Part shown: piece after piece, positions 16,901 to 33,244 of the stretch
How the letters are laid out: every line of letters starts with the position of its first letter
Position numbering within the stretch: the first letter of the stretch is position 1
NCBI GenBank assembly: GCA_947626145.1
Contig: CANQRB010000004.1
Location: 29,250-93,249 of the forward strand
Origin: an uncultured Clostridia bacterium
GTDB taxonomy: Bacteria; Bacillota; Clostridia; UMGS1883
Direction: 5' to 3'
Length of the DNA: 64,000 bases
Made by a program: the position numbers and the translations under genes
The notes under the pieces: model-generated
Told to the model about the DNA's origin: nothing
Databases searched by the model: none
Seen by the model: the letters and a program-made list of their open reading frames with translations, nothing else

Positions 16901-18244
16901 ATTCTCATCATATTCTACCCACCTTGCATACAAAGTTAATTTATTGTTAACGGCCAATTTAAAATCATAGATATTTTCGCAATCCCTATCAGTATACCAG
17001 CCACCAAACAAATAATCTTTACGTTCAGGGTCTTTGGGAATTGTAACATTATTTCCAGCTAAAATCTCTTGACTTTCAGGCGCATCCTCTGCCCCTTCAT
17101 AATTCAAATCAAAGGTGACAGTGTAAACGCCGTCCTCCTCAATTTCTTCTTCCCAACCAGCATACAGAGTCAAGCGCTCGGTAATTTCCGTGTTCTCAAA
17201 ATCAAACTCATAAACGCATTCCTCATCTGTGTACCAGCCCGTGAAGATATAGCCCTCTCTTTCGGGATCATCGGGACGCTCTGCATAATCGTTCTTCTTT
17301 ACTTTCTGGGTAGCCGGAGGATTTTTCGCTCCTGAATAATTCAGGTCAAATTTTACATTGTATCTCGTGGTGCCGCCGGAGCTTCCGCCACCACCGCCAC
17401 CACCGGTGGAACGACTTATCGTATATTCAACGCTCATCACATCGCTGACAAGAACATCATCTTTTACCGCGATTGCCTTCAGTGTCGCGGTAGACAGTAT
17501 ATTTATATTGCCACCTGTGTATTCCTCGCTGTCAACTGTGGGCTCTGTTCCATCGGTCGTATAGTAAATCTTAACGCCCTCGGTGTCGCTCTTAAGCGTT
17601 ACAAGCTGATTTACATAATATGTGCCCGCCTCAACGGACGCGACAGGGGCGGCTACCGTTGTGCGGAGACCGTTATAAACCATTACGGCAATGTCCCCAC
17701 GGGTAGAGGCTGATCCCTTTCTGCCCTTGAGGTTATCCGTTATACCGTTATCCTCAGCCGCTTTAATATAGCCGGCAGACCAATCATCAGGGTCGGATTC
17801 AACATCGTCGCCAAGACCGACGCCGCAAACCACCATCTTTATGGCCTCTTCATATTTGACGTCGTCATCCGGCATAAATCCGCCGCTACCGTTGCCGTTT
17901 ATTATCTCCTCTTTCGCGGCGACATTGATGTAGCCGCTGGCCCAGTGGTCGGCGGGAACATCGTCAAACTTTGTGGCGCCCTTGGAATTGCGGGCATCGT
18001 TCTCCTTGCCTATCATGCGGCATACTACCGCCGCCATTTCGGACCTTGTGATAGATTTATCCGCCCCAAATGTACCGTCGGCGTAGCCGGTGAAAATGTC
18101 GAGCTTTTCCAGAGCGAGAGCCGCCTCGGCGTAATACTCATTCCCCGTAACATCGGAAAAGACCGTGCCTGCGGCAAAAGCACCGATCGGCGCAAGCGAC
18201 AGTGTCATTGCCAAAACTAAAATGATGCTTAAAAATTTTTTCAC
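13928..18244 (-). CDS. SLH-domain cell-surface M4 (thermolysin-like) zinc metalloprotease, ~1438 aa
   Basis: Likely GTG start (MKKFLSIILVLAMTLSLAPIGAFA signal peptide) with a GGAGG RBS. Three SLH repeats sit at the N-terminus. A chitobiase/Fn3-like domain and a Gly/Ser linker follow, then two Listeria-Bacteroides (Flg_new) repeats (YIFTGWYTDEEC, YLFGGWYTDRDC) and a PepSY/FTP-like propeptide. The M4 catalytic core has HEYTH (HExxH) and the third zinc ligand in AINEAYADIFG. Carboxypeptidase-regulatory-like beta domains are at the C-terminus. Low GC. Confidence 0.85.
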   Translation of the reverse strand: MKKFLSIILVLAMTLSLAPIGAFAAGTVFSDVTGNEYYAEAALALEKLDIFTGYADGTFGADKSITRSEMAAVVCRMIGKENDARNSKGATKFDDVPADHWASGYINVAAKEEIINGNGSGGFMPDDDVKYEEAIKMVVCGVGLGDDVESDPDDWSAGYIKAAEDNGITDNLKGRKGSASTRGDIAVMVYNGLRTTVAAPVASVEAGTYYVNQLVTLKSDTEGVKIYYTTDGTEPTVDSEEYTGGNINILSTATLKAIAVKDDVLVSDVMSVEYTISRSTGGGGGGGSSGGTTRYNVKFDLNYSGAKNPPATQKVKKNDYAERPDDPEREGYIFTGWYTDEECVYEFDFENTEITERLTLYAGWEEEIEEDGVYTVTFDLNYEGAEDAPESQEILAGNNVTIPKDPERKDYLFGGWYTDRDCENIYDFKLAVNNKLTLYARWVEYDENEFNKAIVQYAYDTLEITYSKGDCKESVTHDLILPTMIETVDISWESNNINVVSESGSVSRPINENKNVRLNASISKGDYNLTKSFEVTVIKESNFNINESPNNSVVDIEQMNKDADFDTYIEYNEEGSQVTAISGKISDIDINSPDDALYAIYGVRTILGMNDPIKELNISVTNSGKYGTDYTFSQQYNGLDVYDRNLTVSVDNNGTSTSLTSDVVASANLVDVNTDPVISESEAINIAKSQYPQESVDVVSTEVVIYSLDEYEQSPVVAYVICLSGDNIDETVIINGYTGSVIYSGSNILDWGDKRVTGSGENEKNTEVSFPVQFKQWDWLFYYMEDSERNIKMYDGGLVNSRVGSEFNVWRDKTAISAYTNMIDVYNWYADTLGRRSVDGNGYPIKVTVHKFGGSSNACWTGGNKEFYFYDNSNNDSNLQTTTASGLDIIAHEYTHGVVQFKTGNGLSHDHSNGHISYAINEAYADIFGWFVDDNNYTIGEDWRPLRNVKDPSSCHKPSKVGGTNWCTNTGNKSVFAHTNSSVISHAAYLMSQGYPSYSLPAISMSKLIDLWYGSLGKGFSANSNFKTVRRNVLLQADTQGLSKAEKMTIKRAFDDVGIYGDRGTLYIQIVDAEDETFIKDATISILDDDFLIGKVQIGAEGAKELSLDVGTYSVVIEKDGYMPFYGLATVTKDNQTEELVKLVKSGEGKISGVITSATTGYPIDGVIVRLRNGWNSSKGEEISSTITNGSGEYSLTASSGYYTIEMEKYGYTTGYFNVTIIGGREVANQNGSISPSMTSNQYRAVLRWNMNPSDLDSHLVGSLSDHRNFHVYFSNRNGYNASGDLVANLDVDDTDGEGPETVTFEVDINSTYEYYVYWFYGEGTWATSGAQVELYNGNNLVEVYKVSSNQSGNSWPVFKISNGILINYHDEESLVSIESLPDKVPIKDISNEFGGKELKNEESVETAFEGDISENKNTGKKDEELNGNDETDGMIAL

Positions 18245-20366
18245 GATTGTAACCTCCAATTTTATTTATTCACTTTCTAATTGCAGGAAAACACCGCCAC
18301 TGTATGTCACGCCCCCTTTTGGGCGAATTTGTCCTCCGTACAATAAAAAATGCGCAGCTCATCGGAGCCGCGCACGAAAAATGCTTAGCTCCGAATTTAC
18401 TGCGACATAAATTAATATAACACAAAAGAAACGCATTTTTGGCACTCGCTCATTAAAAATGCAACCAGAGCGTTACAGGAGCAGCATTTTTACCAATGCT
18501 AATGTTGCTCCGGTTAGCACTTTTATACGTTAGAATGTTAAAACAATGATAGAAAATATAGGTACTCAAAAAAGAGCGCAAAAAGCGAACTTAATAAGCG
18601 TTTCTATATTAATCTATGTCGCAAATAAAGTATACCACACATTTTTCCGGTTGTAAAGTGTTTTTTTTTCGTAAATGAATAATTTTTTATAACATATTCG
18701 CCGCGAAACCCATCTAGGCGCTTATCTTGCTGCTGAACGGCTCCCCGACTGTTTTACAAAAGAGTCGAACATTGCACAAATTCGTTCTTCGTAGGAAGGA
18801 GCTGCCACAACATTTCCCTCCTTTTGCTAAAAATTGTTCTTGGTCGGTTTTCCCCCCCTTTGTAATACCGGAACAATTTAAGTTATACAAAATCGGAAAT
18901 TTTTTTAAATTATCTGAAAAAGTCAAAATAAAAAGGACAGATTAATATCTATCATTCTCAGTATTCAATTACATCGCCTTTAAAAATCCCCTCCGGCGCA
19001 TGAGGGGGTTTACGCCGGAGAAAATTTTATATATCAAAGAGGCCCGTGCCTCTTAATTTTTGCGGCCGGTTATGCCTGAGTCGCGGCGTCCGTCTTGACT
19101 CTGCGGAAGCGCACCAGACCCGTACGGTGAAGGGCAACCATTATTGCCGGGATAAGCACAAGTTGAAGTATTATTCCGGGGATGGCGTTAAGCACCGCAG
19201 TCTGCGCAGGACAAAAAACCTGAAAAGATGTCGATTTCGCCTGACTTTGTTGGTCTATGTTGCATGGCGATCCGCTTCTGTGCAAGCTCAAAGATTTCTT
19301 CGTCAATTAACGGCTCATGCGTATTAGGTAAGAAATAGCGTTGTTCTGCCTCTTTTTCGACTTATACGAAACCTTGTGTGTTTTCTCAGTGATGATATGC
19401 CCTAAATACTTTTACCGTGTCAGGATGTCAAACAGCGTTTTCTCCGGCCATGTGTAAGGAGCGATCAAGGCTTTCTGATGTCGCGCATTCCTCGTCCGCT
19501 CATAACGTAATGCACCGATTGTCAAAACCTTGTTGTCGTCAAGCCATCGCTGAATATCGCACATCTGAGTATCCTTCACATACATGACGAAAATCTGCTT
19601 GACTATGAGATGTATCCGTATGGATATTCCCCGTTGACGTGCTCGCCCTTTTGAGTCCGCGCCTGCTTTGCGGCTCGGTGGTTGTCGCTCGGCATATTCT
19701 CTCGGATATGTGTCATGGCACACCCGCCGTATGGCTCGGCGCAAAAGGGATGTGTCCTTTGTTGCTGTTATGATGCCTCGCTGTTATCTTGCGGGCAAAT
19801 TTGTCGAGGTTCGTACAGATGGGGAGTATCGGAAAGGGGGATTTATGCGCCGCTCCAGGTCGTCGGGTCAGTTCACCTGAAAAGTCAGAATTTTTGTAAT
19901 GAGCTTCGTTTCCAGTCTGCTGATCTTCGTCTACGCACAAATGAGGATTGCCATACTCGTCGTTTTCGATGTACACTGTATGATCCAGAATACCGAAAGC
20001 CCTGTCCTCTTTGAAATAACTGTCTCAGACTGAAAGCTGATTCATTACTTCAACAGGAAATTCGACAAAGAAAATCGCCTGCCTGCACATGGCAGGCGGG
20101 CGAAACGGAACTAACAGAAGTATTTACGTGATTTATGTGTTCATCTTCCTCGGCAGGGTATCCCGCTTGCTGGGTCAGACTTCTTTTGAGCGAAGAACCA
20201 TTGCCGGAATTTGTCGATATGGAATAGGCTTCATGGCGGCTACCTCCTGTTAGCCGCCATACCTGTTAGCCTGCAGTTTCTTCCCTTGTATCAAGAGAAA
20301 TGGCAGCCTATGAAAAACAAGCATATAACCAAGAGCAGCAGTATATAGGCTCTGCGTCTATGCGTC

Positions 20367-20530
20367 TTACTCTTTTACAACCTCGATCCGTAGGTGTTCC
20401 TCGTTAATCAGCGTTTTGCGTTTGCATTTGGGACAATACAACGGAAAGTTCTCCAGAATGGTATCTTCCAGTATTTTAATTCGTGTTTTGCTTTTACAAA
20501 CAGGACACAACACCAAAACGCTTTTATTTA
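20367..20530 (-). CDS. Cysteine-rich KTR-domain small protein (~50 aa), likely from a mobile-element backbone
   Basis: Minus-strand translation LCPVCKSKTRIKILEDTILENFPLYCPKCKRKTLINEEHLRIEVVKE matches the Cys_rich_KTR family (two CxxC pairs). The start is probably GTG/TTG. Not in the ORF track (short). Confidence 0.4.
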
Positions 20531-20716: not shown

Positions 20717-21340
20717 TTACGATTTTTTGAACTTCGTTTTAAGCGCCTCAAAGTTTGCTTTCAGCTTGGCACGCTCAGCTTCCATTTTCTGCTTGCGTTC
20801 TGCGCTACGCTCAGCGTGCATCTTACGGCGAGCTTCGTCGGCAAGTTCTTTTTCTACGCGCATTGCTTCTTCTACCTCGTCCTGTACCAATGTAGCATCG
20901 CGTCGAAGAATCGTCGTTTGAAACTTATCGAACCGAAAATCCAGTGCATGATCTGTTTCCTCCTGCGCAAGGAGAAGAATCGCGACCTCACCGTCCTCCA
21001 GCTTTGATCCAACCGTTTCCAGCATTGTGTTGTTCCGATCCACATCATCAATGTCTTTGGCGCTTCCAATCAGATGACCTGTCATACCACCCAAAAGGAT
21101 GCCGAGAGGACCACCGAGAATTCCGATCAGACCGCCAATCAGACCGCCCGCGAGGGCGTCATCGCTGCTGTCCATGCCGCTTGTGAATGAGTCTATGGTG
21201 GAAATTATATTACCGTTTTTCTTTACAAGCGCCCCTTGCAATACGGTATATTGCGGCATAATTGGCTGCTTTTTGATTCCCATGTAGGCTTGATAGCCCT
21301 CGCTTTCCACATTGAACAAAATAGTTAAGACATTTTCCAT
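20717..21340 (-). CDS. Hypothetical protein with a glycine-zipper core and Lys/Glu-rich coiled-coil tail
   Basis: 207 aa. GGLIGGLIGILGGPLGILLGGMTGHLIGS glycine-zipper motif, and a C-terminal ERSAERKQKMEAERAKLKANFEALKTKFKK. GAAAGGAAG RBS. Confidence 0.7.
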   Translation of the reverse strand: MENVLTILFNVESEGYQAYMGIKKQPIMPQYTVLQGALVKKNGNIISTIDSFTSGMDSSDDALAGGLIGGLIGILGGPLGILLGGMTGHLIGSAKDIDDVDRNNTMLETVGSKLEDGEVAILLLAQEETDHALDFRFDKFQTTILRRDATLVQDEVEEAMRVEKELADEARRKMHAERSAERKQKMEAERAKLKANFEALKTKFKKS

Positions 21341-21538: not shown

Positions 21539-21988
21539 TTATCTCCTGTTTGCTTTTTTCAGTTCCTTTTGGGCGGCTTTGATTTCCCGTTGCAGTTCGT
21601 CAAGTTCCTGTTCCAGTGCGTCGGCAATATAATCTCCGGTAATCACAGCGGCACGAATCATACAGGCGGTGCTTACAATGGCATCCTCCACCTCTTTTCC
21701 GAGTCCGAGGAGTTCCAGAGAACCTGTGCCGTTTTCATCGTACAGCACCACGTCCGGAATCCCGTTTTTATCCGTGTCTCCGAAGTACAGATTGAATTCT
21801 CCGTCGCCGGTGAGATCCACCGCCAGCGTGTCAATATCTCCGTCGCCGGTGGTATCAAGCAAAGCCAAATCCGCTTCTTTATCTCCGTCAATATCGATCA
21901 AAATCTCGTCTTTTCCACTGCGAAGCAGTGTCTTGTGCCAGTCGCGGTCAAATTTCATTTTAGTTTTCAATTTTCTGAGGGTTCCCAT
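21539..21988 (-). CDS. Hypothetical protein with tandem DxDxDG (EF-hand/dockerin-like) calcium-binding repeats
   Basis: 149 aa. DIDGDKEAD, DTTGDGDID, DLTGDGEFN and DTDKNGIPD loops. C-terminal amphipathic helix LEQELDELQREIKAAQKELKK. AAAGGAG RBS. The overlapping plus ORF 21443-22039 is rejected. Confidence 0.7.
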   Translation of the reverse strand: MGTLRKLKTKMKFDRDWHKTLLRSGKDEILIDIDGDKEADLALLDTTGDGDIDTLAVDLTGDGEFNLYFGDTDKNGIPDVVLYDENGTGSLELLGLGKEVEDAIVSTACMIRAAVITGDYIADALEQELDELQREIKAAQKELKKANRR

Positions 21989-22039
21989 AGGTCATTGCTC
22001 CTTTTCTTTTATTTTGGGCTTTTTCAGCCTTTTTTATAG

Positions 22040-22330
22040 GGTTATTCTGTCCGCAACACAAACAGGGGCTCTCTTTGCGGCATTTCTGGAGGGGATGATG
22101 CCGGCAATTTCTGACGCAACAAGCACCCCACCCCTGTGGTGGCCGGGTAGTGTTTAACTTCGAAATAAATCAATGAAATCATTAGTAATCTTATAACTTC
22201 TCCCTTGATTTATTCCGTTTCATCCGATCCCATTTTTGCAGCAGCCTCTTTATAGAAACATCCAAATATCCAATATAATTTTGCCACCGTAAAATCCGCT
22301 TATGATAGGGGCCTTCCTTTCCAAAAAACT
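22040..22330 (-). pseudogene. Rearrangement scar: relic SAS leader fused to a GT8 3' end fragment and a pgsA-like 5' fragment
   Basis: 22040-22140 parallels the first ~35 codons of the PgsA-like gene (22987..). 22140-22260 parallels the last 15 codons of the GT8 gene (FYKEAAAKMGSDETE vs FYKEAVAKMRSDETE) plus the intergenic spacer. 22290-22330 repeats the SAS gene leader/RBS (ttttttggaaaggaagg). No intact ORF. Confidence 0.6.
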
Positions 22331-22368
22331 TGTTGGATTGATACCGTCTCTGCCGCTTCTCACAAATC

Positions 22369-22403
22369 ATGATAGCAGAGAAATCTAAACTGAAACGAAA
22401 CTG
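22369..22403 (-). promoter_or_regulatory. Conserved promoter module, copy 1 (TTTCAGTTTAGATT box + TGC-TATCAT)
   Basis: Minus-sense GTTTCGTTTCAGTTTAGATTTCTCTGCTATCATGA. It lies upstream of the scar and of the 21988/21340 genes. Confidence 0.55.
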
Positions 22404-22414
22404 TCTTTTTTCTT

Positions 22415-22987
22415 TTATTTGTGCGGAACAGGATTGTTTTTACTCAAAATATGCTTATAGTATCGGATATAAAGGATGAGAGACATAATCATCAAACATC
22501 CGCTTATTAGAATTAGACCATTTGCTATTTTCAATGGGATATCGGGGAAAAGGATAAGCACAGATATAACAATATACAAAAAAACTGTGTTCAACTTTCC
22601 ATACCATTTTGCGCTGTTGACAGTATCTTTTCGTTTCAAAGCAAGATATCCAAGCGTGGCCATGCAGATTTCTTTTCCGATAAACAATACGATCAGAACA
22701 GACATCCACTTATACCGACTCGAAAGGCAGACAATAAGTACACATTGCGTCAATTTATCCGCTATGGGGTCTAATATCTTGCCAAGATCGGATACCATAT
22801 GGAACTTCCGTGCAATGATACCATCAGCAATGTCCGTAATTGCTGACGCGACAAGCACTCCTGTGGCTGCTTGGTAGTGTTTGACCCCGATATAAAGCCA
22901 TACGATCAGCGGGATCATCAGTAATCTTATAACGCTAAGCAAATTCGGTATGGTCAGGATTTGGTCTTTTTTGAATATCCTGTGCAT
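22415..22987 (-). CDS. CDP-alcohol phosphatidyltransferase (PgsA-like)
   Basis: 190 aa, polytopic. Signature DIADGIIARKFHMVSDLGKILDPIADK (D-G-x2-A-R...G...D...D). Confidence 0.8.
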   Translation of the reverse strand: MHRIFKKDQILTIPNLLSVIRLLMIPLIVWLYIGVKHYQAATGVLVASAITDIADGIIARKFHMVSDLGKILDPIADKLTQCVLIVCLSSRYKWMSVLIVLFIGKEICMATLGYLALKRKDTVNSAKWYGKLNTVFLYIVISVLILFPDIPLKIANGLILISGCLMIMSLILYIRYYKHILSKNNPVPHK

Positions 22988-23005
22988 TGAATATCCTCCC
23001 TTAAT

Positions 23006-23851
23006 CTATTCCGTTTCATCTGATCTCATTTTTGCAACAGCCTCTTTATAGAACACATCCAAATCTCCGATATAATTTTCTTTCCACGGTTTATTCCTTC
23101 CGCAGTAGTGAATTATAATGGAGTGCTTTCGTACCCAATTCAAATCAAGACTTTTTTCAAATGGACTGTGCACCCGATAAAGCCACTCTGTCATGTTATA
23201 TCGAAATGGGTCCAGCGTATAGATTTTGCTGCCATACAGGCTGCTGATAATGTCCTGATCCGGAAAGACAAGATGAGATTTTCTCTTTTCGATGAAGTGA
23301 AACACATCCGCATAGTCCTGCTCTTTCCGTAAAAGCGAGAGGTTCATGAGCAACACGCCGGAATTAATATATGGGCTGTTGTCATCCATATCCAGACGCA
23401 GTTCATTGAACTTATGGAGAAACCCAAGACTGTCAATGTGTGACGCTGCCGCATAATAGTATTCTTCCATCGAGGTCTGATACAGTGGAAGAATCGAACC
23501 ATTGAGAACAAGATCGGGGTCAAGATAGAGCACGCGGTCGAGAGTCTCCGGCAGATAGCGTGCAGCAAAAATACGGTAATAAATCTCTTGTGGATAGCGC
23601 GAAGTTGTTGGGGCCTCGTCAAGCGCCAAATAATCAGCCTTTATTGGGATCAGACATCCTCCTGCCTTAAAAAGCATTTTTTCGGTTGCTTTAAGCGCCT
23701 GCTTTGAAATTGAGGAATGAAGAAGATACACATGGAATACGCAGCCTGGGTTGGAGCGAATCAAGGTTGAAAGCATCACATTCAAATAGGGGATGTAGTT
23801 TTCATCCAAAGTAACAAGAATATTAATCGGATTTATCAATCCAGGATTCAT
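23006..23851 (-). CDS. Family 8 glycosyltransferase (GspA/LPS glucosyltransferase-like)
   Basis: Start at MNPGLINPINILVTLDENYIPYL (GGAGGG RBS; the track's upstream extension is rejected). YLDPDLV DxD motif and a GT8 core. Confidence 0.8.
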   Translation of the reverse strand: MNPGLINPINILVTLDENYIPYLNVMLSTLIRSNPGCVFHVYLLHSSISKQALKATEKMLFKAGGCLIPIKADYLALDEAPTTSRYPQEIYYRIFAARYLPETLDRVLYLDPDLVLNGSILPLYQTSMEEYYYAAASHIDSLGFLHKFNELRLDMDDNSPYINSGVLLMNLSLLRKEQDYADVFHFIEKRKSHLVFPDQDIISSLYGSKIYTLDPFRYNMTEWLYRVHSPFEKSLDLNWVRKHSIIIHYCGRNKPWKENYIGDLDVFYKEAVAKMRSDETE

Positions 23852-23917
23852 TTTAATCCCTCCCTGTTTCTTATGTTGTATATAGTCTTCTTCACCCATT
23901 CACAAATCCTACCATTT

Positions 23918-24625
23918 CTATCGTGGTTTCAGAGTATTTTTATTTTGTTGGGTCTTTTTTAAGAGGTTATCCATTCTCCGATCAAGTTCCGCGCTGAGGT
24001 TTGCGCACTGATAAAGTTCCTCAGCCATTTCCGGGGTAAATGCAGAATCCTTTTTATAACGAAGCTGATGTTCAAGGCTGGCCCAGAAATCCATCGCTAT
24101 CGTGCGCAGCTGAATTTCTACTTTCATCATCCGTTTTTCATGTGCCAAAAAGATCGGAATTGCTACAATCAGATGCAGACTTCTATATCCGTTGGGTTTC
24201 GGGTTTTTTATGTAGTCCTTTTTTTCAATCAGGGTAATGTCATCCTGTATGAGCAATGCCTCTGACAGCGCATAAACATCGTCCGGAAATGAGCAGATTA
24301 CTCGAACACCGGCAATATCGTTTAGATTTTCTTCTATAGAGGAAAGTGTGGGCGGGATGCCCCGCCGCTCCAATTTTTCTTTTATGCTGCGGGGATTTTT
24401 CAGTCTGGTTTTGATACTGCTTATCGGATTACGGTCGAATTCCAAAGAATATTCTTCATTCAACACATTGAATTTTGTTTCAATCTCCATCATGGCACAT
24501 TTGTAATAGGACATCAGGCGGATAAAAGGTACAGATTTTCTCTGCATCCAGTCGATTGTCTGATCGTCCACAATAGAGAGCATTCGTGTTTTTATATTTT
24601 CATCCTCTTGATTCCATTCAGACAT
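23918..24625 (-). CDS. Small alarmone synthetase (RelA/SpoT-domain GTP pyrophosphokinase, RelQ/RelP-like)
   Basis: Start at MSEWNQ with GGAAAGGAAG RBS. Synthetase motifs GYRSLHLIV, EIQLRT, DFWASLEH.LRYK. ~235 aa with no hydrolase domain. Confidence 0.8.
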   Translation of the reverse strand: MSEWNQEDENIKTRMLSIVDDQTIDWMQRKSVPFIRLMSYYKCAMMEIETKFNVLNEEYSLEFDRNPISSIKTRLKNPRSIKEKLERRGIPPTLSSIEENLNDIAGVRVICSFPDDVYALSEALLIQDDITLIEKKDYIKNPKPNGYRSLHLIVAIPIFLAHEKRMMKVEIQLRTIAMDFWASLEHQLRYKKDSAFTPEMAEELYQCANLSAELDRRMDNLLKKTQQNKNTLKPR

Positions 24626-24692
24626 TCTGATCTTCCTTTCCAAAAAACAAAGCTTGTTGGATCAATACCGGCTCTGCCGCTTTTCGCAGGTA

Positions 24693-24724
24693 ATGATAGC
24701 AGAGAAAACTAAACTGAAACAAAA
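24693..24724 (-). promoter_or_regulatory. Conserved promoter module, copy 2 (upstream of the SAS-GT8-pgsA operon)
   Basis: Minus-sense GTTTTGTTTCAGTTTAGTTTTCTCTGCTATCATTA. The -10 is ~70 nt from the start codon. Confidence 0.55.
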
Positions 24725-24818
24725 CAACGACGGACCCTTCGAAAAAGAAGAATCCGTCTGACCGCTTTACGGCGGAAGTAATAAACTAATTTTATAACCA
24801 TTTCGCAAGTTGACTGTA

Positions 24819-26588
24819 TCAAGCTGCAAGGCAGCGAGCGTTGGCGCTGGATTGCTCCAGCCGGTCAGATGCTGCTTTGATTGCAGCCATCTCACTTTCA
24901 GTTACGGTTTCCGGTTTATATTTGCCAAGCAACTTTCGTAATGCAGAACAGTCTTCTTTAATCTGCTTTTTTTCTTCTTTTTCAAGCTGCTTCCCAACTT
25001 TGTGCAATGCCTGTTCAGCTTCTGATAATACCTTCCCTGCGCGATTAACCATTTCTAAAGAGTTACGGCGAACACCATCCTGTGCCGCATACTGTTCCGC
25101 ATCGCGAATCGCCTGTTCAATCTCCGCATCGGACATTTTATCATTGTTCGAAATGGTAATAGACTGTGCTTTCCCCGTATCCAAATCTCTTGCGGACACT
25201 TTTAAAATTCCATTGGCATCAATGTCGAAAGTAACTTCAATCTGCGGCACTCCTGCGGGGGCTTTCTTAATTCCGTTAAGTTTGAATTTGCCGATGGTCT
25301 TATTATCGCGTGCCATTGGCCGTTCTCCTTGTAGAACATGAATTTCCACACTGCTTTGAAACGGTGCCGCGGTTGAAAAAATCTGTGAATAGTGAATGGG
25401 CAAAGTGGAATTTCTCTCCACAAGACGTGTTGCGACACCGCCTACTGTTTCAATAGAAAGGCTGAGAGGGGTAACATCCAAAAGAAGGATACCGTTTTCC
25501 GAACCGGCAATCTGCAGCGAACCGCCAGAAAGCGTGTCTCCCTGAATGGCGGCGCCCTGAGCAACACACTCATCCGGATTGATATTCTTTGACGGTATAA
25601 TACCGGTCAATTGACGCACTTTTTCCTGAACAGCGGGAATACGGGTTGCGCCTCCGACAAGGATGACCTTGCCAAGTTCGGATGGCGCAATACCAGCATC
25701 ATTCAAGGCGTTCTGTACCGGAATTGCTGTTCGATCCACAAGATCGCGGGTCAGCTCGTTGAATTTGGCACGGGTGAGGATAGTATCAAAGTGTATTATG
25801 CCGTCCTTTTCCTGGGCCAGGTACGGCAGGCTTATCATAGCGTTCTCTGAGCCGGACAGTTCCTTTTTTGCCTGTTCAGCCGCTTCACGCACACGCTGCA
25901 ATGCTACATAATCTTTTTTTACATCTGTATGATACTGCCTCTGAATTTCCGAAATCAAATACTCAGTGATACGCTCATCAAAGTCATCGCCGCCCAAATG
26001 GTTATCACCATTTGTTGCCAGAACTTCTATAACGCCGTCTCCAATCTCAATGATGGAAACATCAAAAGTACCGCCGCCAAGGTCATATACCATGACCTTT
26101 TGCTGTGTTCCGTTATCCAGCCCGTAAGCAAGCGCGGCGCTGGTTGGCTCATTAATAATCCGTTTTACATTTAAGCCTGCAATTCGCCCGGCATCTTTTG
26201 TGGCCTGTCGCTGAATATCGTTAAAATAAGCGGGTACAGTGATGACCGCGTCCGTCACTTCCTCTCCAAGAAAGGCTTCTGCATCCTTGCGCAGTTTTCG
26301 TAGAATCATTGCACTGATCTCCTGCGGCGTAAATCTTTTACCGTCAATATTGATAGTCCAATCCGTCCCCATGTGACGTTTCACAGACGAAACGGTTCGG
26401 GACGCATTAGTAACCGCCTGTCGTCTTGCCGTTTCACCCACTAACCGTTCACCGGATGCGGTAAAAGCAACAATGCTGGGAGTGGTTCTTCCGCCTTGTT
26501 CGCTTGGAATGATAACGGGTTTGCCGCCCTCTACAAAAGCGACGCAGCTATTCGTTGTTCCAAGATCAATACCGATTGTTTTTCCCAC
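24819..26588 (-). CDS. Hsp70-family chaperone paralog (DnaK-like, not in a canonical hrcA-grpE-dnaK-dnaJ context)
   Basis: Probable GTG start at [14 protein letters not shown] (GGAAAGGATGG RBS). Complete actin-like NBD ([24 protein letters not shown]) and substrate-binding domain. Neither grpE nor a full dnaJ is adjacent. Confidence 0.85.
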
Positions 26589-26605
26589 AGTAATTCCATC
26601 CTTTC

Positions 26606-27406
26606 CTACATACATCTAAGGCAGCCAAATGGGCCGCATAGGAATTGCATGGCTAAAAAGCCAAAACATATTTTTTGTATATTAGTGGCTTCCATATCGA
26701 AGCCTTTTGCATTTTGTTCATAGGTTTGCTCTGAACGGCGAAATTTTTGCAAAAGCAGATGATAGGTGCGATTATTCGGCTCCATTTGTGATGCTCTCTG
26801 CATATGGTCGATTGCCTGAACGGTGTTACCAAGACCATGATTGGCAAGAGCGCTTAAATAATACCACCTTGCACCTCGTCCTACGCTCGGTATACGGGTC
26901 AAAATCCAAATTGCCTCTTGATAGCGATGGTTATTGATTTCAGTAATGGCCTGCCTGATTTCCATATTGTCGCCCGGCTCAGGCTGCGGATTCATAAAAA
27001 CGGCATCATCATTGCCGTTCCGTTCAAATCCAAATCCAAAAATATTCCCAAAGTCAAAGCCGCCAAAATCGCTCGACCAGCCACCCGGACCTCGATAACC
27101 GCCAGAGCCGCCCTGCCTTTCATATCCGGTTCCACTATAACCGCCGTTTTGATTTTCCGTATATCCCCCATATTGCCTACTCTGTCCGTAAGATTGGCGC
27201 TGCTGTGCTCGCCTTGCCTCATACTTCTGCGGATTCATCAACATATCGTAGGCTTCATTCACCGCATTCATTTTTTGGCTCGCGGTCGGATCATCGGGAT
27301 GCAAGTCAGGATGATATTGCTTTGCCTTTTGACGATATGCTTTTTTTATTTCTTCTTTAGTCGCTCCTTTAGGAACGCCCAGAGTTTGATAAGGGTCATT
27401 GACCAT
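26606..27406 (-). CDS. J-domain protein (DnaJ N-terminal domain only) with a Gly/Tyr-rich linker and a helical C-terminal domain
   Basis: YQTLGV...[15 protein letters not shown] contains the HPD motif. It lacks the CxxCxGxG zinc-finger and the client-binding domains of true DnaJ. Confidence 0.8.
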
Positions 27407-27409
27407 GGC

Positions 27410-28228
27410 TCACTTTTTCCTTTCCGTCTGCATTTGCCGGTTATATTTGATCCAAACGCCAGAATAAAGAATGTTCCTTAAAATGTGGGCGTCCTGGACA
27501 AGCGGCAGCGATTCAAAGGCTTCAGCAGCTTCTCCGAGAATGGTCTTCAGCATGGAGCGGATTTCTTCCTGACTCAGAGTGACAGAAGAAAAAGGATTAT
27601 AACTTCCTTTTTTCTGGTCATGCCTTAAATCAATCGCGGCATCGGCAAGATAGATATACTTTCCGATATGATAACCAAACTTCTGCAAACGCGGCATCCA
27701 GTGATCCGGCTCAACCACAAAAATCGTTGACATCAATCTGCCAAAGCTGTTGGCTGCCGCATCTGGAGAGGCGAAGCAGGATTTCTCAATTTCAGAGATT
27801 TCATTTATTTCCTTTTCGATGATCGAACACTGATCTTTTCTTGCTGCTCTGACTTCTTCATAAGCCTTTTTAAGCAGAGTGGCATAGCACTTGTGGGAGA
27901 TATTTCGATCATCGTTCCAGTCGTCAAGACATTTGAAGTATGTCAAGGCTATTGTCATATCGGCGGCATAGTCTATATATTTACCGGACAGATAATTATG
28001 TTTCTTGCATGGATGCACGGCACATCGCACCGCTTTGCTGGTTTCCTCCGGTTCATACAAGGATGATAAAAACATAGCCAAGAATGTCAGATCGTATGTC
28101 AGTCCCAATCGCGACCTAAATCCATACCTTTCCCCCAACGCATGACACAATCCGCAATAAAAGGCACGATACCGTTCTTTTTCTTCATCAGTAAGACCGG
28201 ATAAATTGGCCTGTATGATTCCAAACAT
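27410..28228 (-). CDS. Uncharacterized Cys-rich cytoplasmic protein co-operonic with the J-domain/Hsp70 pair
   Basis: 272 aa; N-terminus MFGIIQANLSGLTDEEKERYRAFYCGLCHALGERYGF. From memory it resembles DUF5685-type proteins that accompany Hsp70/J pairs in Clostridia; this is not verified here. Confidence 0.6.
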   Translation of the reverse strand: MFGIIQANLSGLTDEEKERYRAFYCGLCHALGERYGFRSRLGLTYDLTFLAMFLSSLYEPEETSKAVRCAVHPCKKHNYLSGKYIDYAADMTIALTYFKCLDDWNDDRNISHKCYATLLKKAYEEVRAARKDQCSIIEKEINEISEIEKSCFASPDAAANSFGRLMSTIFVVEPDHWMPRLQKFGYHIGKYIYLADAAIDLRHDQKKGSYNPFSSVTLSQEEIRSMLKTILGEAAEAFESLPLVQDAHILRNILYSGVWIKYNRQMQTERKK

Positions 28229-28237
28229 AGTGCCACC

Positions 28238-28648
28238 TCATGTTTTGCGGGTTATTTTGCCTTTACATACCGGACAAGTGATTTCAATTTGCCCTTTTCC
28301 TTTCGGAACTCGTAGCCAACTTTTGCAGTTCGGACATTTATAATACCGATGCGTCTTTCGATCTCGCCACATATTTTTCCGACGTTTGAAACTCTGCTTC
28401 ACTTTGTCTGTATATTTCAAGAAAGTTTCCCGCTCCTTCTGTCGTTTTTCAAGATTGCGGGAAAAGCTGCGAAACATCGACCAAATCAACAGAATCATCG
28501 CAATCGGATATAGCAGAGGGACGAGCGGGGAAATGAGTACGAAAACCAGCACCGCAATCAATAGAAATTTGGAAAGCTCGTCATAGCCGTATCTTCCGTA
28601 CATCCATGCCTGCATTTTTTCTCCGAGCCTTTGCAACCATCGTTTCAT
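28238..28648 (-). CDS. Small membrane protein with a C-terminal zinc ribbon
   Basis: 136 aa; one or two TM helices, then CPNC...CPVC near the C-terminus. First gene after promoter module copy 3. Confidence 0.65.
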   Translation of the reverse strand: MKRWLQRLGEKMQAWMYGRYGYDELSKFLLIAVLVFVLISPLVPLLYPIAMILLIWSMFRSFSRNLEKRQKERETFLKYTDKVKQSFKRRKNMWRDRKTHRYYKCPNCKSWLRVPKGKGQIEITCPVCKGKITRKT

Positions 28649-28688
28649 TTTCCGTTTCTCCTTTATCGGCTTACTCTTTTTACACCAA

Positions 28689-28722
28689 ATTTTACAGCAA
28701 GAATCTAAACTGAAACGAAACT
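28689..28722 (-). promoter_or_regulatory. Conserved promoter module, copy 3 (upstream of the zinc-ribbon/DUF/J-domain/Hsp70 operon)
   Basis: Minus-sense GTTTCGTTTCAGTTTAGATTCTTGCTGTAAAATTT. The -10 TAAAAT is ~40 nt from the ATG. Confidence 0.55.
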
Positions 28723-28928
28723 AAGGAAGAGCTTTCTTCCAGACTATTTTTTCGGTAAGTTCAGTTCTGATAGATTTACTGAATAGCCGCAGAAGTCATA
28801 GACCTACATAAAAAAGAACCTCCACAACGAAGGCTCTCACGGTAAATCTCATATTGGAAGCGGCAGTATGCCTCACAGCACACTGCCACTTTACGCTTCT
28901 CATGCTTAATTAAATGTCCCGCACTATT

Positions 28929-29714
28929 TTATCCAATGCCTCTGAAAGCATTAACGGAAAGAATCGCCACGCCTAAAACCGTCAGCACCACACCAACAGC
29001 CCTGTTGAGCGTTTTGGCGCTGGCCTTGTTTGCGAACAATGCGGCGATCCTTGCCCACAACAGAGTAAACGCCACGCAGAGAGCGAGACACCATAGGTCG
29101 GGCATATCGCCAATGGCAAAATGACTGACGGCGCCGGTCAGCGCGGTAAAGGTCATAATAAAGACACTGGTACCCACAGCGGTTTTTAATTCATATCCCA
29201 AAATGCTGGTCAACAGAAGCAGCATCATCATTCCACCGCCTGCGCCCACAAAACCACAAATGAAGCCGACGACCATTCCGCAGACAATCGACTGAATCGT
29301 CCGCTTTTTTGCGCTTACGACAGCCATCGCCTCCTTTGTGGTCATGACAGGTTTTACAATAAATTTGATGCCCAAAAGCATCGTCATGAAGACGGAGAAG
29401 CTGCCCATAGTGGCGTTGGAGACCAGACTGGCTACCCAACTGCCTACTAAGGTGAAAAGCAAGACGGCCACCATCATAACAAGCCCGTTGCGAATGTCGA
29501 TGTTTTTGTTTTTTCCATAGGTATAGGCGCTGACCGCACTTGCCAGCACGTCACTTGCCAGAGCGATGCCTACCGCTTCATAAGCCGGCATACCCATAAA
29601 TGTGATCAGCATTGGGCTGATGACTGCGGCGGCGCTCATTCCGGCAAAACCGGTTCCCAAACCCGCTCCGATACCTGCTATAAAACAAACTAAAACTTTT
29701 ACCCACAGATTCAT
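28929..29714 (-). CDS. TauE/SafE-family (sulfite exporter-like) membrane protein
   Basis: Start at MNLWVKVLVCFIAGIGAGLGTGFAGMSAAAV with GGAGAAAAA RBS. Two repeated 4-TM halves with G-rich motifs, typical of TauE. The track's 5' extension is rejected. Confidence 0.75.
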   Translation of the reverse strand: MNLWVKVLVCFIAGIGAGLGTGFAGMSAAAVISPMLITFMGMPAYEAVGIALASDVLASAVSAYTYGKNKNIDIRNGLVMMVAVLLFTLVGSWVASLVSNATMGSFSVFMTMLLGIKFIVKPVMTTKEAMAVVSAKKRTIQSIVCGMVVGFICGFVGAGGGMMMLLLLTSILGYELKTAVGTSVFIMTFTALTGAVSHFAIGDMPDLWCLALCVAFTLLWARIAALFANKASAKTLNRAVGVVLTVLGVAILSVNAFRGIG

Positions 29715-29845
29715 TTTGCGTTTTTCTCCATATATTTTTTTATATTCTTTTCCACCCGCGTTATGTAGGACTGAAACTGCCGCTGACCTCTTTGTCAAGA
29801 TCGTCTGCGATGATATCCGCAAAATCGAAGCACTCTGATAAAAAA

Positions 29846-30940
29846 TCAGTTTTTCTGGCTTTCTTCTTCTGCATTTAGCTTTGATTTCGGCAATGTAACC
29901 GTAAACATGGTAAGATTGTTTTCGCTTTGAACCGAAACCGTTCCGTTGTGCAATTCCACCACTTTTTTGACAATTGCAAGCCCGATTCCGTTTCCCTCAC
30001 CGGAGTGTGAACTGTCAGCCTGATAAAATTTCTGAAAGATTCGTGATATACTTTCCGCAGGAATTTCCTCTCCCGAATTGATGATATCCACGGACAGGGA
30101 AGACGGTTGATTTTTAATATTGACTTCAATGACTCCTCCAGCGGGAGAAAATTTGATCGCGTTATCCAGCAGATTGATCCACACCTGTTTCAAAAGCTCC
30201 TCATTGGCAGAAATCCTGTATTCACCGAAATCCACTTTAAAGTCCAGTTGCTTTTTTTCCCACTTGTCGGCAAGCAACAGGATGGAAGACCGGATTTGTT
30301 CTGAAAGGTTAAACTTTACAACATCCGTTAAAATCGTTTGATTTTCTACCCGCGTCAGATTCAACACGTTTGTCGCCATATCAGAAAGCCGCAGAGATTC
30401 TTCTTCGATAACCGCCAAATATTCCCCTTTTTGTTCTTCTGTCAGGTTGCCTCGGCGAAGCAGCTTTGCAAAGCCGGCAATAGATACGATGGGCGTTTTG
30501 AATTCATGCGAAAAATTATTTACAAAATCCCCACGAAGCATCTCTGTATTTTTGAGTTCAGAAGCCATTCGATTGAAGCTGTGCGAAAGCTGCGAAAAAG
30601 TAGGATGTTTGGATATGGGCCATCCGAAATCCAATCGGGCACTGAAATCACCGGATGCCAGCCGATCGATTTGATAAATTACATTCCGCAGGGGGCGGGC
30701 GGATATTTTACTGGATAAATAGGCAACAATGACACCGACAATATTACTGATGACGATCATGTAGAGGATGATAATACCGATGTTTGATCGGATATCGGTA
30801 TCAAGCGTGACAACTTGAAAATGTACCAGCATATAAATAATAGAAGCGGTTATTGAAGTAATAATAAATTGAATGAAAAAAATAAGTGTCGATATTAAAA
30901 ACGTGAGCGCAAAATAATGTTTTCGATTTTGTTTGTTCAT
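29846..30940 (-). CDS. Sensor histidine kinase (two N-terminal TM helices, HisKA, HATPase_c)
   Basis: H-box FSHEFKTPIVSIAGF, N-box LLDNAIKFSPAGG, G-boxes GEGNGIGLAIVKK. Overlaps the regulator gene stop. Confidence 0.9.
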   Translation of the reverse strand: MNKQNRKHYFALTFLISTLIFFIQFIITSITASIIYMLVHFQVVTLDTDIRSNIGIIILYMIVISNIVGVIVAYLSSKISARPLRNVIYQIDRLASGDFSARLDFGWPISKHPTFSQLSHSFNRMASELKNTEMLRGDFVNNFSHEFKTPIVSIAGFAKLLRRGNLTEEQKGEYLAVIEEESLRLSDMATNVLNLTRVENQTILTDVVKFNLSEQIRSSILLLADKWEKKQLDFKVDFGEYRISANEELLKQVWINLLDNAIKFSPAGGVIEVNIKNQPSSLSVDIINSGEEIPAESISRIFQKFYQADSSHSGEGNGIGLAIVKKVVELHNGTVSVQSENNLTMFTVTLPKSKLNAEEESQKN

Positions 30941-31611
30941 ACTTTTTTCACCGCCTTATATCCGAGCCCGCGCACGGATTCGATATCAAATTCTTCCCAA
31001 CCCTCGAACCGTTTGCGGAGCCTGCCGATGTGAACCGTCACAGTTTCCCACCCGGTATCGCTCTCAGCGCCCCAGATTTCATCCATCAGTTGAATCCGTG
31101 TAAAAATCTTTCCGGGGTATGACAGCAATTTATAAAGTAACAAAAATTCCTTTTGCGGGAGTTCTTGTGTCTCGCCGTTTTTGGTCACGGTAAAGGAATC
31201 GTAATCCAAAATTACATTTCCAATCGTCATTTTACGTTCGTTGGCAATTTGAGCGCGGCGTAGAAGTGCTTTGATTCGCCAGAGCATTTCTTCCTCATCA
31301 ATCGGTTTTGTCATGTAGTCGTCAATCCCTAATGAAAAACCTTTATGTTTATCTTCGGGGAGCTGTTTTGCCGAAACCATAAGAATGGGAAGATTGTTCT
31401 TGCTTTCGCGGAGGATTTTTGTAAATTCATATCCGTCCATTTTCGGCATCATTATGTCGAGAATCACAAGGTCAATATACTCTTTATCCATTACATCGAG
31501 GGCGTCTTCACCGTTTTCCGCAGTAAATACAGAATAGTGCTCCGTTTCAAGCACGGCTTTGAGCAGCCGGCGTGTATTTTTATCGTCGTCTACAACAAGA
31601 ATTTGGAACAT
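30937..31611 (-). CDS. OmpR-family response regulator
   Basis: Receiver domain VVDDDKN...DLVILDIMMPKMDG plus a winged-helix C-terminus (GYEFTK...RGLGYKAV). Confidence 0.9.
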   Translation of the reverse strand: MFQILVVDDDKNTRRLLKAVLETEHYSVFTAENGEDALDVMDKEYIDLVILDIMMPKMDGYEFTKILRESKNNLPILMVSAKQLPEDKHKGFSLGIDDYMTKPIDEEEMLWRIKALLRRAQIANERKMTIGNVILDYDSFTVTKNGETQELPQKEFLLLYKLLSYPGKIFTRIQLMDEIWGAESDTGWETVTVHIGRLRKRFEGWEEFDIESVRGLGYKAVKKV

Positions 31612-31642
31612 TGTTTACACCTCCTAATAATCAATATAAGAT

Positions 31643-31675
31643 AAGATAACATACAAATCTAAACTGAAAAGAAAG
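31643..31675 (-). promoter_or_regulatory. Conserved promoter module, copy 4 (upstream of the response-regulator/kinase/TauE operon)
   Basis: Minus-sense CTTTCTTTTCAGTTTAGATTTGTATGTTATCTTAT. The -10 TATCTT with TGT is ~30 nt from the ATG. Confidence 0.55.
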
Positions 31676-32096
31676 TGTGCGAGTTTAATCCCCAAAATTT
31701 ATTATTTCGTTCAGCAGGCTTTTTCGCGTCTTTGAGCAACAGCCACATCTTTCCCATTTTATCGACTCCTGCAATACGTCCGGCAAAACAGTAATAATTT
31801 AATCATGCGGGGAGAGATACCCCATTTTTCGCTGCCTATTTGAACGTCATGTAATTAAAATATCGCACCTCCACATATAAAATTATATTTCGTTATCTTG
31901 AAGAAAGCAAGTGCATTTGATGAACATTAGATGAATTATTTACCCTCGCTACTGAAACTGTAAAGACATATCCAAATAAAGAAAGGGACTGTAAAATGGA
32001 TCAATTTCAATAAAGCGGACAGAAAAACATAAGATGGCAGGAAATTATGTAAAATATTCAATATCCATATTTCTCATAAAGTATATCACATAAAAA

Positions 32097-32472: not shown

Positions 32473-32787
32473 ATGGATGTACAAAAGCGCATCAGGTAGT
32501 TGATGGCGGAAAGAGGCTGGTCAGACTATAGGCTTGCAAAGGAGTCCAACCTCTCTCACTCAACTATAACGAATATATTCAACAGAAATAACGCCCCAAC
32601 GCTGCCAACATTGGAGTCCGTATGTTCCGCTTTGGGGGTAACCATGTCACAGTTTTTCACTGAAGGCGACGAACCCGTTGTGTTGAGCAGCGAACAAAAA
32701 ATAATACTTGATAGGTTCAACACGTTATCACCGACTCAGAGAAAAGTCATTATTGAACTGCCTGGCAATATGAACAAAGGCACATGA
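32473..32787 (+). CDS. XRE-family HTH transcriptional regulator interrupted by an in-frame TAG at codon 9 (alternative start TTG/ATG at 32500/32503)
   Basis: MDVQKRIR-TAG-LMAERGWSDYRLAKESNLSHSTITNIFNRNNAPTLPTLESVCSALGVTMSQFF is a canonical HTH_3. The TAG at 32497-32499 would be CAG in an intact IRQLMAERG helix 1. Confidence 0.6.
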
Positions 32788-33153: not shown

Positions 33154-33244
33154 TGGCGGAGAGAAAGGGATTCGAACCCTTGATCGGGGTTAACCGATAC
33201 ACGATTTCCAGTCGTGCGCCTTAGACCAGCTCAGCCATCTCTCC
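33154..33244 (-). tRNA. tRNA-Ser (anticodon GGA)
   Basis: Minus-strand GGAGAGATGGCTGAGCTGGTCTAAGGCGCACGACTGGAAATCGTG...long variable arm...GGGTTCGAATCCCTTTCTCTCCGCCA. 7-bp acceptor stem, CTGGAAA anticodon loop, class II variable arm, encoded CCA. Confidence 0.85.

Follow-up and report, generated by a model that had tools for sequence, protein, structure and literature searches.

At the E. coli pho box two 7 bp direct repeats, each with a 4 bp A/T-rich segment, make up an 18 bp site that lies 10 bp from the −10 box and replaces the −35 sequence, and PhoB~P binds there head-to-tail and contacts region 4 of sigma. The CiaRH system of Streptococcus likewise has an OmpR-family regulator and an operator of two directly repeated hexamers 5 nt apart, the second lying 10 nt from the −10 box, and CiaR-dependent promoters can be searched for by the rule TTTAAG, 5 nt, TTTAAG, 10 nt, −10 box (PMC3091779). 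A 64,000 nucleotide stretch of DNA from an uncultured Clostridia bacterium (assembly GCA_947626145.1, contig CANQRB010000004.1, positions 29,250 to 93,249 of the forward strand), here called the window, holds four copies of a promoter module of comparable layout, three of which head operons for a two-component system, for a DnaK-like Hsp70 and for a RelQ-like alarmone synthetase. The repeat within these modules is, with good probability, bound as operator by the response regulator encoded at 30937-31611 (minus strand), and the promoters would be activator-dependent.

The pattern TTTCAGTTTAG-WTT-N7-TANNNT occurs exactly four times in the window, always on the minus strand (22369-22395, 24693-24719, 28689-28715 and 31643-31669), and not once in 100 dinucleotide-preserving shuffles, and so the four-copy module with an invariant 11-mer given in the preliminary description stands, as does its reading of the −10 hexamers in the minus sense (TATCAT, TATCAT, TAAAAT and TATCTT) with an extended TGn ahead of three of them (sites 22385, 24709 and 31659). 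Permitting one mismatch in the 11-mer yields just one extra match, which is background level. With a 21-nt weight matrix the four sites score 27.2 to 32.1 bits and the scan of the 64 kb gave no weaker further sites, the next-best position being at 13.7 bits and within the shuffle range. The seven bases 5' of the 11-mer are part of the element, which is an 18 bp direct repeat, AGTTTCG-TTTC-AGTTTAG, of 7 bp half-sites with an 11 bp period, with TTTC after the distal half-site and an A/T-rich triplet after the proximal one. A GTTTC repeat earlier noted just upstream is present, but is better read as the distal 7 bp half-site of this 11-bp-period direct repeat.

Module 1 (31643-31676, minus strand) heads the regulator-kinase-TauE operon and has a degenerate operator, ACTTTCT-TTTC-AGTTTAG, at 31659-31676, then a 10-nt spacer with TGn and the −10 box TATCTT at 31643-31648; at 27.2 bits it is the weakest of the four. 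Module 2 (28689-28722, minus strand; 32.1 bits) has the operator AGTTTCG-TTTC-AGTTTAG at 28705-28722 and the −10 box TAAAAT at 28689-28694, and module 3 (24693-24726, minus strand; 28.9 bits) has TGTTTTG-TTTC-AGTTTAG at 24709-24726, TGn and the −10 box TATCAT at 24693-24698. Module 4 (22369-22402, minus strand; 32.1 bits) shares the operator sequence of module 2, at 22385-22402, and has TGn and the −10 box TATCAT at 22369-22374. In all four the distance from the end of the repeat to the −10 hexamer is exactly 10 nt, and none of the four promoters has a usable −35 consensus. If transcription starts about 7 nt past the −10 box, the 18 bp site would span about −40 to −23 and so take the place of the −35 element. 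From −10 box to start codon there are 31, 40 and 67 nt for modules 1 to 3, within the 30-80 nt that had been claimed for every copy; the claim fails for the copy at 22369-22402, for which the distance is 380 nt (start at 21988). The terminator scan placed a terminator-like hairpin at the end of unit 1 (28814-28838, minus strand), immediately upstream of module 2, and a strong one of 12 pairs at the end of unit 2 (24729-24758, minus strand), immediately upstream of module 3, and units 1, 2 and 3 are therefore separate transcription units.

Conservation of the element was followed in 80 loci fetched via orthologues of the window kinase, one genome per species, with kinases 51-94% identical to that of the window and adjoining regulators 66-97% identical; the records carry the labels Lachnospiraceae, Oscillospiraceae, Christensenellales, Ruminococcus, Roseburia, Faecousia, Acetatifactor, Thermoclostridium, Hungateiclostridiaceae and others. 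Identical copies of the window proteins were found only on gut-metagenome contigs of the same organism. Over the 1.29 Mb of the 80 loci and the same-species contigs the exact 11-mer occurs 59 times, against about 0.6 expected by uniform chance, and almost all copies lie just 5' of the regulator gene, just 3' of the kinase gene (before the next operon) or divergent from the regulator. When 58 sites, taken from the exact 11-mer copies in regulator/kinase loci, were aligned for a consensus, columns that had no part in the selection were conserved too, namely a distal half-site (A/T)GTTT(C/A)G, the A/T triplet and a −10 TA...T at fixed distance. Scores of the 21-nt matrix in the window and the 80 loci are bimodal, with about 130 sites at or above 18 bits and no shuffled position at 18, and at least one such site is present in 75 of the 80 loci. 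Among these 130 sites TANNNT stands exactly 10 nt past the repeat in 117, the commonest hexamers being TAAAAT and TATAAT with TGn in 37, and the best match to TTGACA is at most 4/6 at every site and 3/6 at 94. A direct repeat with half-sites one helical turn apart, AGTTTCG-N4-AGTTTAG, as would suit an OmpR/PhoB-family protein, is kept throughout, and an operator at fixed distance from a sigma-70-type −10 box that lacks a −35 consensus points to the promoter layout of PhoB and CiaR.

Two other accounts of the element bear on this geometry. The box might serve a dedicated alternative sigma factor as its −35 element, as the preliminary description allowed, for it is a conserved sequence at the −35 position with a fixed spacing to the −10 box, and its GTTTAG half-site resembles the GTTTAA −35 of sigma-B promoters. 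The −10 boxes are however sigma-A-like and not GGGTAT-like, the conserved element of 18-21 bp is built of two equal units 11 bp apart and reaches to about −40, far beyond a hexamer, and the 10 nt left to the −10 box is too short for a −35 hexamer at the 3' end of the element. Further, the site travels with the regulator gene (co-occurrence in 75 of 80 loci) and the island in the window contains no sigma-factor gene, and so a dedicated sigma factor is very unlikely. It might otherwise be that the regulator binds the repeat and represses, by occluding the −35 region of promoters that are active without it, since the site overlaps −35 to −23, where bound proteins often block RNA polymerase, and OmpR-family regulators are able to repress. 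Against such occlusion, a repressor would find no good −35 to mask at any of the 130 promoters, and a distance to the −10 box that is exact to the nucleotide in 90% of sites would be needed for contact with polymerase and not for blocking it. Pho-box-type geometry activates transcription in PhoB promoters. The identical geometry activates in CiaR promoters (PMC3091779), and repression, although it has somewhat more in its favour than the alternative sigma factor, seems unlikely.

The preliminary description had proposed that one transcription factor, most probably the encoded response regulator, controls all four units, its own operon included, and the presence of the operator in 75 of the 80 loci, mostly beside regulator and kinase genes, upholds this for units 1 to 3. 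Autoregulation, also proposed there, is supported by operators directly before the regulator gene in the window and at orthologous loci: a regulator orthologue lies directly 3' of 40 sites in the kinase-anchored loci and window, and of 63 of the 311 sites listed overall. These 40 sites are weaker than the target operators (median 25.3 versus 29.3 bits, p = 1e-4), a pattern which the window follows in that module 1 scores lowest of the four. A different DNA-binding protein with the two-component system as bystander, such as the Xre-type HTH protein encoded at 32500-32787, would be another way to account for the site; its HTH_3 gene is some 800 nt from module 1 and is also found in the same-species contigs. 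Yet Xre homologues occur in just 3 of 200 motif-bearing loci among the matches listed, the common neighbours being the regulator and kinase, and direct repeats with an 11 bp period suit winged-helix OmpR-family dimers where Xre-type proteins typically bind palindromes, which makes this highly improbable. Many metagenome loci (L104, L118, L137, L144, L154, L156, L158, L169 and L172) have operators back-to-back on opposite strands, mostly about 15 bp apart, presumably as divergent promoter pairs sharing one regulatory region.

The proposed operator binder is a 224 residue protein (30937-31611, minus strand; predicted phospho-acceptor D52) with matches to Pfam Response_reg (1.1e-32) and Trans_reg_C (7.4e-18), each above cut-off, and so it belongs to the OmpR/PhoB family. 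It scores below every NCBIfam equivalog cut-off, and RegX3, DrrD and MtrA are its closest solved relatives. The winged-helix DNA-binding domain is nearly invariant over 59 distinct orthologues, as would fit an invariant operator. The likeness to PhoB lies in the same 7+4+7 layout and 10-nt distance and in PhoB being the best NCBIfam match (TIGR02154), whereas the equivalog score is missed (179.1 bits against a cut-off of 296.2), the half-site sequence is another one and the kinase lacks the PAS-containing architecture of PhoR. The predicted regulon contains no phosphate-related genes among the matches listed.

As to CiaRH, the window operator can be read as hexamer-N5-hexamer-N10-(−10) and its T-rich hexamers end in G (GTTTMG ... 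GTTTAG), as do those of CiaR, in which the final G is invariable and “extremely important”; autoregulation and a regulon concerned with the cell envelope would be common to both. The half-sites nevertheless differ (GTTTMG/GTTTAG here, NTTAAG for CiaR), the clostridial kinase has 364 residues and no extracytoplasmic domain where the streptococcal partner kinase has 463 residues, and the predicted regulon here comprises lipid synthesis, FtsH and Hsp70 and not the HtrA or small RNAs of CiaR. Orthology to CiaR was rejected: the regulator is 35% identical to an unnamed streptococcal protein (P0123), taken as CiaR-type and retrieved using a CiaR query sequence, and is no closer to it than to RegX3, DrrD and MtrA. 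The same search result includes P0138, 89% identical to the CiaR query, and a CiaR-type box (one mismatch) lies upstream of its operon (L215, 1771-1802). The best-supported model is that the clostridial system would act at the promoter as CiaR and PhoB do, while being an orthologue of neither.

The partner kinase (29846-30940, minus strand; 364 residues) has two N-terminal hydrophobic blocks, at about residues 10-44 and 50-79, a short loop between them, a HAMP domain directly after from residue 80, and then HisKA (His145) and HATPase. Two hydrophobic cores could be called in 19 orthologues, with 17-26 residues between them, and mean identity to the window sequence falls from 83% in the DHp domain to 35% in the transmembrane (TM) part and 18% in the loop. 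Mascher's definition of intramembrane-sensing kinases asks for two transmembrane helices and an extracytoplasmic linker of fewer than about 25 residues, and the input region of the window kinase, two TM helices and a short loop, conforms to it. None of the 120 best homologues carries a specific kinase-family name, the sole name at source being “HAMP domain-containing sensor histidine kinase”. There is no space for an extracellular domain, and the sequences of loop and membrane segments vary freely, which makes it likelier that a bulk membrane property is sensed, or that sensing goes through a partner protein, than that a specific extracellular ligand is recognised. Kinase architecture and regulon content together suggest membrane perturbation as the signal, candidates being free fatty acids, bile acids, solvents and altered lipid packing.

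DesKR of B. subtilis has a kinase whose TM segments sense the physical state of the bilayer and an output that is a lipid-modifying enzyme; in contrast to the system here, DesR is a NarL-type regulator, DesK crosses the membrane five times and a desaturase gene is the only one controlled, just the kinase core being related. SaeR of S. aureus binds GTTAA-N6-GTTAA, which differs from the present operator. One report (PMC5539427) calls SaeS intramembrane-sensing and links SaeRS functionally to fatty-acid kinase and the free fatty-acid pool, and on that account an intramembrane-type kinase, an OmpR-type regulator and a connection to fatty-acid kinase would be shared; however, in S. aureus Fak acts on the kinase, whose outputs are virulence factors, whereas here fakA, fakB and plsY are themselves predicted outputs. 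Envelope-sensing two-component control of RelP/RelQ-type (p)ppGpp synthetases is known from VraSR of S. aureus and WalKR of B. subtilis (PMC10117726), but their regulators are of other families or have other operators, and an operon shared with lipid enzymes is not reported for them.

Assembled into a pathway, the kinase at 29846-30940 would respond to perturbation of the membrane itself and phosphorylate the regulator at D52, whereupon a regulator dimer would bind both half-sites head-to-tail and, like PhoB and CiaR, recruit the sigma-A RNA polymerase holoenzyme to promoters that are intrinsically weak. Outputs in the window would then be the system's own operon with TauE (positive autoregulation, from the weakest operator), the zinc-ribbon/DUF5685/J-domain/Hsp70 operon and the RelQ-like/GT8/PgsA-like operon. 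Binding, activation in place of repression, the start sites and the stimulus are all predictions of this scheme.

Like the motif, its geometry, its conservation and its co-localisation with the regulator, the gene families downstream of it were computed from the sequences. Metagenome contigs were scanned for the operator and −10 pattern alone, which gave at least 120 further loci, and the regulon gene set was taken as the genes 3' of all 311 sites listed from these and the 80 kinase-anchored loci. Downstream open reading frames (ORFs) were called by their ribosome-binding sites, and the proteins clustered and the clusters named by Pfam or NCBIfam. A co-directional ORF with a Shine-Dalgarno sequence lies 3' of 291 of the 311 sites, at a median of 50 nt (interquartile range 44-68 nt). 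Collapsing the first genes at 80% identity left, among the matches listed, 116 distinct site-driven operons, to which the counts that follow refer. Lipid genes are found in 57 of them: DegV/FakB in 30, FakA in 15, PlsY in 12, DagK-like and PgsA-like in 8 each, acyltransferases in 6, PlsX and PAP2 in 5 each, PlsC, MGDG-synthase-like and alpha/beta-hydrolase in 4 each, GT8 in 3, and cardiolipin-synthase-like and MCRA/oleate-hydratase family in 1 each. Proteostasis genes are in 31 (FtsH 14, zinc-ribbon 14, Hsp70 8, J-domain 7, DUF5685 5, Zn-peptidase 2), and 33 have transporters or other membrane proteins (ABC exporters, fused ABC/FtsX, PF06541, AI-2E, TauE, DUF308, DUF1538). RelQ-like synthetases occur in 7, a flavodoxin in 8 and a radical-SAM protein in 8. 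Seven operons encode a protein of about 1400 residues with two acyl-CoA-dehydratase-activase domains (for example L061, 16880-21049), similar in architecture to the anaerobic plasmalogen synthase PlsA/PlsR; its identity as a plasmalogen synthase could not be confirmed, NCBIfam naming the activase domains only.

Several large metagenome contigs give two or three separate loci, and the regulon is therefore dispersed and reaches beyond the two-component neighbourhood. Given that genes for fatty-acid uptake and incorporation, for phospholipids and glycolipids, for FtsH and for transporters follow the operator, its best reading is a homeostatic response for membrane lipids and membrane proteins. 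The regulon composition first proposed is not supported in that form, the set being wider than the window shows and centred on membrane lipids. The claim that no regulon of such composition had been described was borne out in so far as none was found in the open-access literature. The predicted regulon would unite the synthesis of membrane lipids with quality control of membrane proteins and with an alarmone synthetase.

A broader proposal, which is put forward tentatively and may well prove wrong, is that the system is the master control of membrane homeostasis in gut and other anaerobic Clostridia, in which the two membrane helices of the kinase read the bilayer and one near-invariant operator coordinates fatty-acid scavenging, remodelling of head groups and glycolipids, quality control of membrane proteins and a (p)ppGpp brake on growth. 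Scavenging would be the part of FakA/FakB and PlsX/Y/C, and remodelling that of PgsA-like, cardiolipin-synthase-like, DagK, MGDG synthase, GT8, PAP2 and possibly plasmalogen synthase proteins, with FtsH and a membrane-tethered Hsp70/J-domain/DUF5685 set serving quality control and the RelQ-like protein acting as the brake. Free fatty acids, bile acids, solvents, and lipid packing or thickness would be the candidate signals.

A number of points weigh against the operator model and the regulon drawn from it. The link of regulator and motif is made through co-localisation and co-conservation, and 5 of the 80 kinase-anchored loci are without a site. The weight matrix was seeded by exact 11-mer sites, and the invariance of proximal half-site and spacer is therefore inflated. 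Regulon membership comes from a home-made ORF and operon rule with naming by Pfam, 22 of the 116 operons hold none of the labelled families, and a few abundant species make up most of the metagenome sample; the cardiolipin-synthase-like gene, for one, comes from 23 loci that amount to only 2 sequence lineages at 80% identity among the matches listed. The stimulus is a guess from regulon content and kinase architecture, and at module 4 a gene is missing from the usual position.

For units 1 to 3 the gene content given in the preliminary description agrees with the Pfam and NCBIfam assignments. The third gene of unit 1 encodes a TauE/SafE-family membrane protein (28929-29714, minus strand; by Pfam), with a likely ATG start at 29714, the mechanically called ORF extending up to a TTG at 29822, and the order regulator, kinase, TauE recurs in L006 and L038. 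Between the kinase stop and the likely TauE start there is a 131-nt gap (29715-29845, minus strand), in which the scans flagged neither an operator nor a terminator.

Unit 2 (24819-28648, minus strand), assigned by Pfam and NCBIfam, comprises a zinc-ribbon membrane protein (28238-28648), a DUF5685 protein (27410-28228), a J-domain/TPR-like protein whose TPR match is weak (26606-27406) and a DnaK-like Hsp70 paralogue (24819-26615). The Hsp70 scores 810 bits against a cut-off of 648 for NF001413 and 798.6 against 822.55 for TIGR02350, and its genes of context are those for the zinc-ribbon, DUF5685 and J-domain-only proteins without grpE, which would fit a DnaK paralogue. The same module is also found behind the operator in independent lineages (L014, L038 and L077), with a variant in L037 headed by RelQ, and such a conserved four-gene set without grpE suggests a dedicated, possibly membrane-tethered chaperone system.

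Unit 3 (22415-24625, minus strand) begins with the gene for a RelQ-like small alarmone synthetase (ATG start; 23918-24625), continues with that for a GT8 glycosyltransferase (23006-23899) and ends with that for a PgsA-like CDP-alcohol phosphatidyltransferase (22415-22987). RelA_SpoT (Pfam, 3.4e-33) is the sole domain of the RelQ-like protein, which at 235-241 residues is a small alarmone synthetase; it scores 170.8 against a cut-off of 320 for NF053588, and is therefore a family member and not the YjbM equivalog. Operator-driven operons with RelQ-like, GT8 or PgsA-like genes occur also in L008, L017, L019, L037 and L043.

Module 4 stands apart from the others. It starts 13 nt past the stop codon of the PgsA-like gene and is a duplicate of module 3 together with the relQ 5' untranslated region (5'UTR) up to the ribosome-binding site, after which the two diverge (22270-22440 compared with 24600-24765), the shared stretch being about 100 nt. 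In L008 (11330-11500) the same promoter, 5'UTR and first eight relQ codons stand ahead of a DedA/VTT-family gene, and promoter/leader cassettes therefore seem to be shuffled between regulon members within the lineage. One might from this take all four copies for the outcome of recent local duplication or cassette shuffling, alike for reasons of history and without shared regulation. But modules 1 and 2 share with the others only the operator and −10 positions, and the operator is kept where kinases are only 51-60% identical and flanks are unrelated, which contradicts duplication for modules 1 to 3. As a general explanation duplication hence deserves hardly any credence, and what it does account for is only the extra likeness of modules 3 and 4.

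A gene-free stretch of 380 nt follows module 4 (21989-22368, minus strand), with no credible ORF and a weak terminator-like hairpin at 22142-22128, and the distance of 380 nt from its −10 box to the next ORF with a ribosome-binding site, which starts at 21988, is the longest among individually re-examined sites, where the median over all sites listed is 50 nt. That ORF (21539-21988, minus strand) encodes a 149 residue DxDxDG-repeat protein and has its own ribosome-binding site, and its membership of the regulon is uncertain. The 207 residue DUF1269 glycine-zipper protein beyond it (20717-21340, minus strand) has sigma-70-like promoter matches of its own at 21439-21412 and 21395-21368, and is therefore probably not driven by module 4. 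Homologues of these two proteins adjoin none of the other some 300 sites among the matches listed. The unit 4 of the preliminary description, made of these two genes, is thus not sustained, given the duplicated relQ promoter, the 380-nt leader and the lack of homologues by other sites. Transcription from module 4 may run on into the DxDxDG gene, or the module may be left over from a rearrangement, or, by analogy with the small RNAs driven by CiaR, it may drive a non-coding RNA of about 230 nt that would end at the hairpin 22142-22128. A structured RNA in the shared 5'UTR or the 380-nt leader was considered and rejected: Rfam gave no match in 21950-22420 at E<=1 and only a tRNA over the whole window at the gathering threshold, and folding gave z = −0.5 against shuffles. 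An apparent CTCTGC/GCAGAG hairpin spans the −10 box and would therefore lie outside the transcript.

In the open-access literature, including C. thermocellum DAP-seq and work on C. botulinum cold-tolerance systems, no description was found of the operator, the regulon or the regulation of the DUF5685/Hsp70 module, nor of a two-component system jointly controlling fakA/fakB/plsXYC, FtsH and an Hsp70 paralogue. Matches to the motif string in a C. difficile paper proved to be cloning primers. Apparently new, then, would be a widely conserved but unnamed clostridial two-component system with an operator that can be written down, the mechanism itself being conventional. Regulation of membrane lipids is poorly known in Clostridia, which dominate butyrate production and bile-acid transformation in the gut. 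Since the operator is long, near-invariant and fixed in its distance to the −10 box, it lends itself to regulon prediction in any genome or metagenome bin of the class, and responses to bile, dietary fatty acids, solvents and membrane-active antibiotics become testable. A physiological context is also provided for DUF5685, the zinc-ribbon protein and a second Hsp70 system, and a defined promoter-regulator pair for genetic tools in anaerobes that are hard to engineer.

The whole regulator cluster sits within about 29 kb (window positions around 4000-33000) of 40-46% G+C, against 55-60% on either side, that ends beside a tRNA-Ser(GGA) gene (33154-33244, minus strand) and has the look of acquired or variable DNA. 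No integrase or other mobility gene turned up when the larger ORFs at 1.6 to 18 kb of the window were scanned with Pfam. The same low-G+C region encodes a surface protein of 1443 residues (13928-18259, minus strand) with SLH, Listeria-Bacteroides repeats, Ig-like domains and a thermolysin (M4) protease core. Some 2 kb next to it (18260-20366, minus strand) have only short overlapping ORFs, none of 120 residues or more, and may be decayed or non-coding sequence, and adjoining this ORF-poor stretch, at 20367-20516 (minus strand), is the gene for a 49 residue Cys_rich_KTR zinc-ribbon protein.

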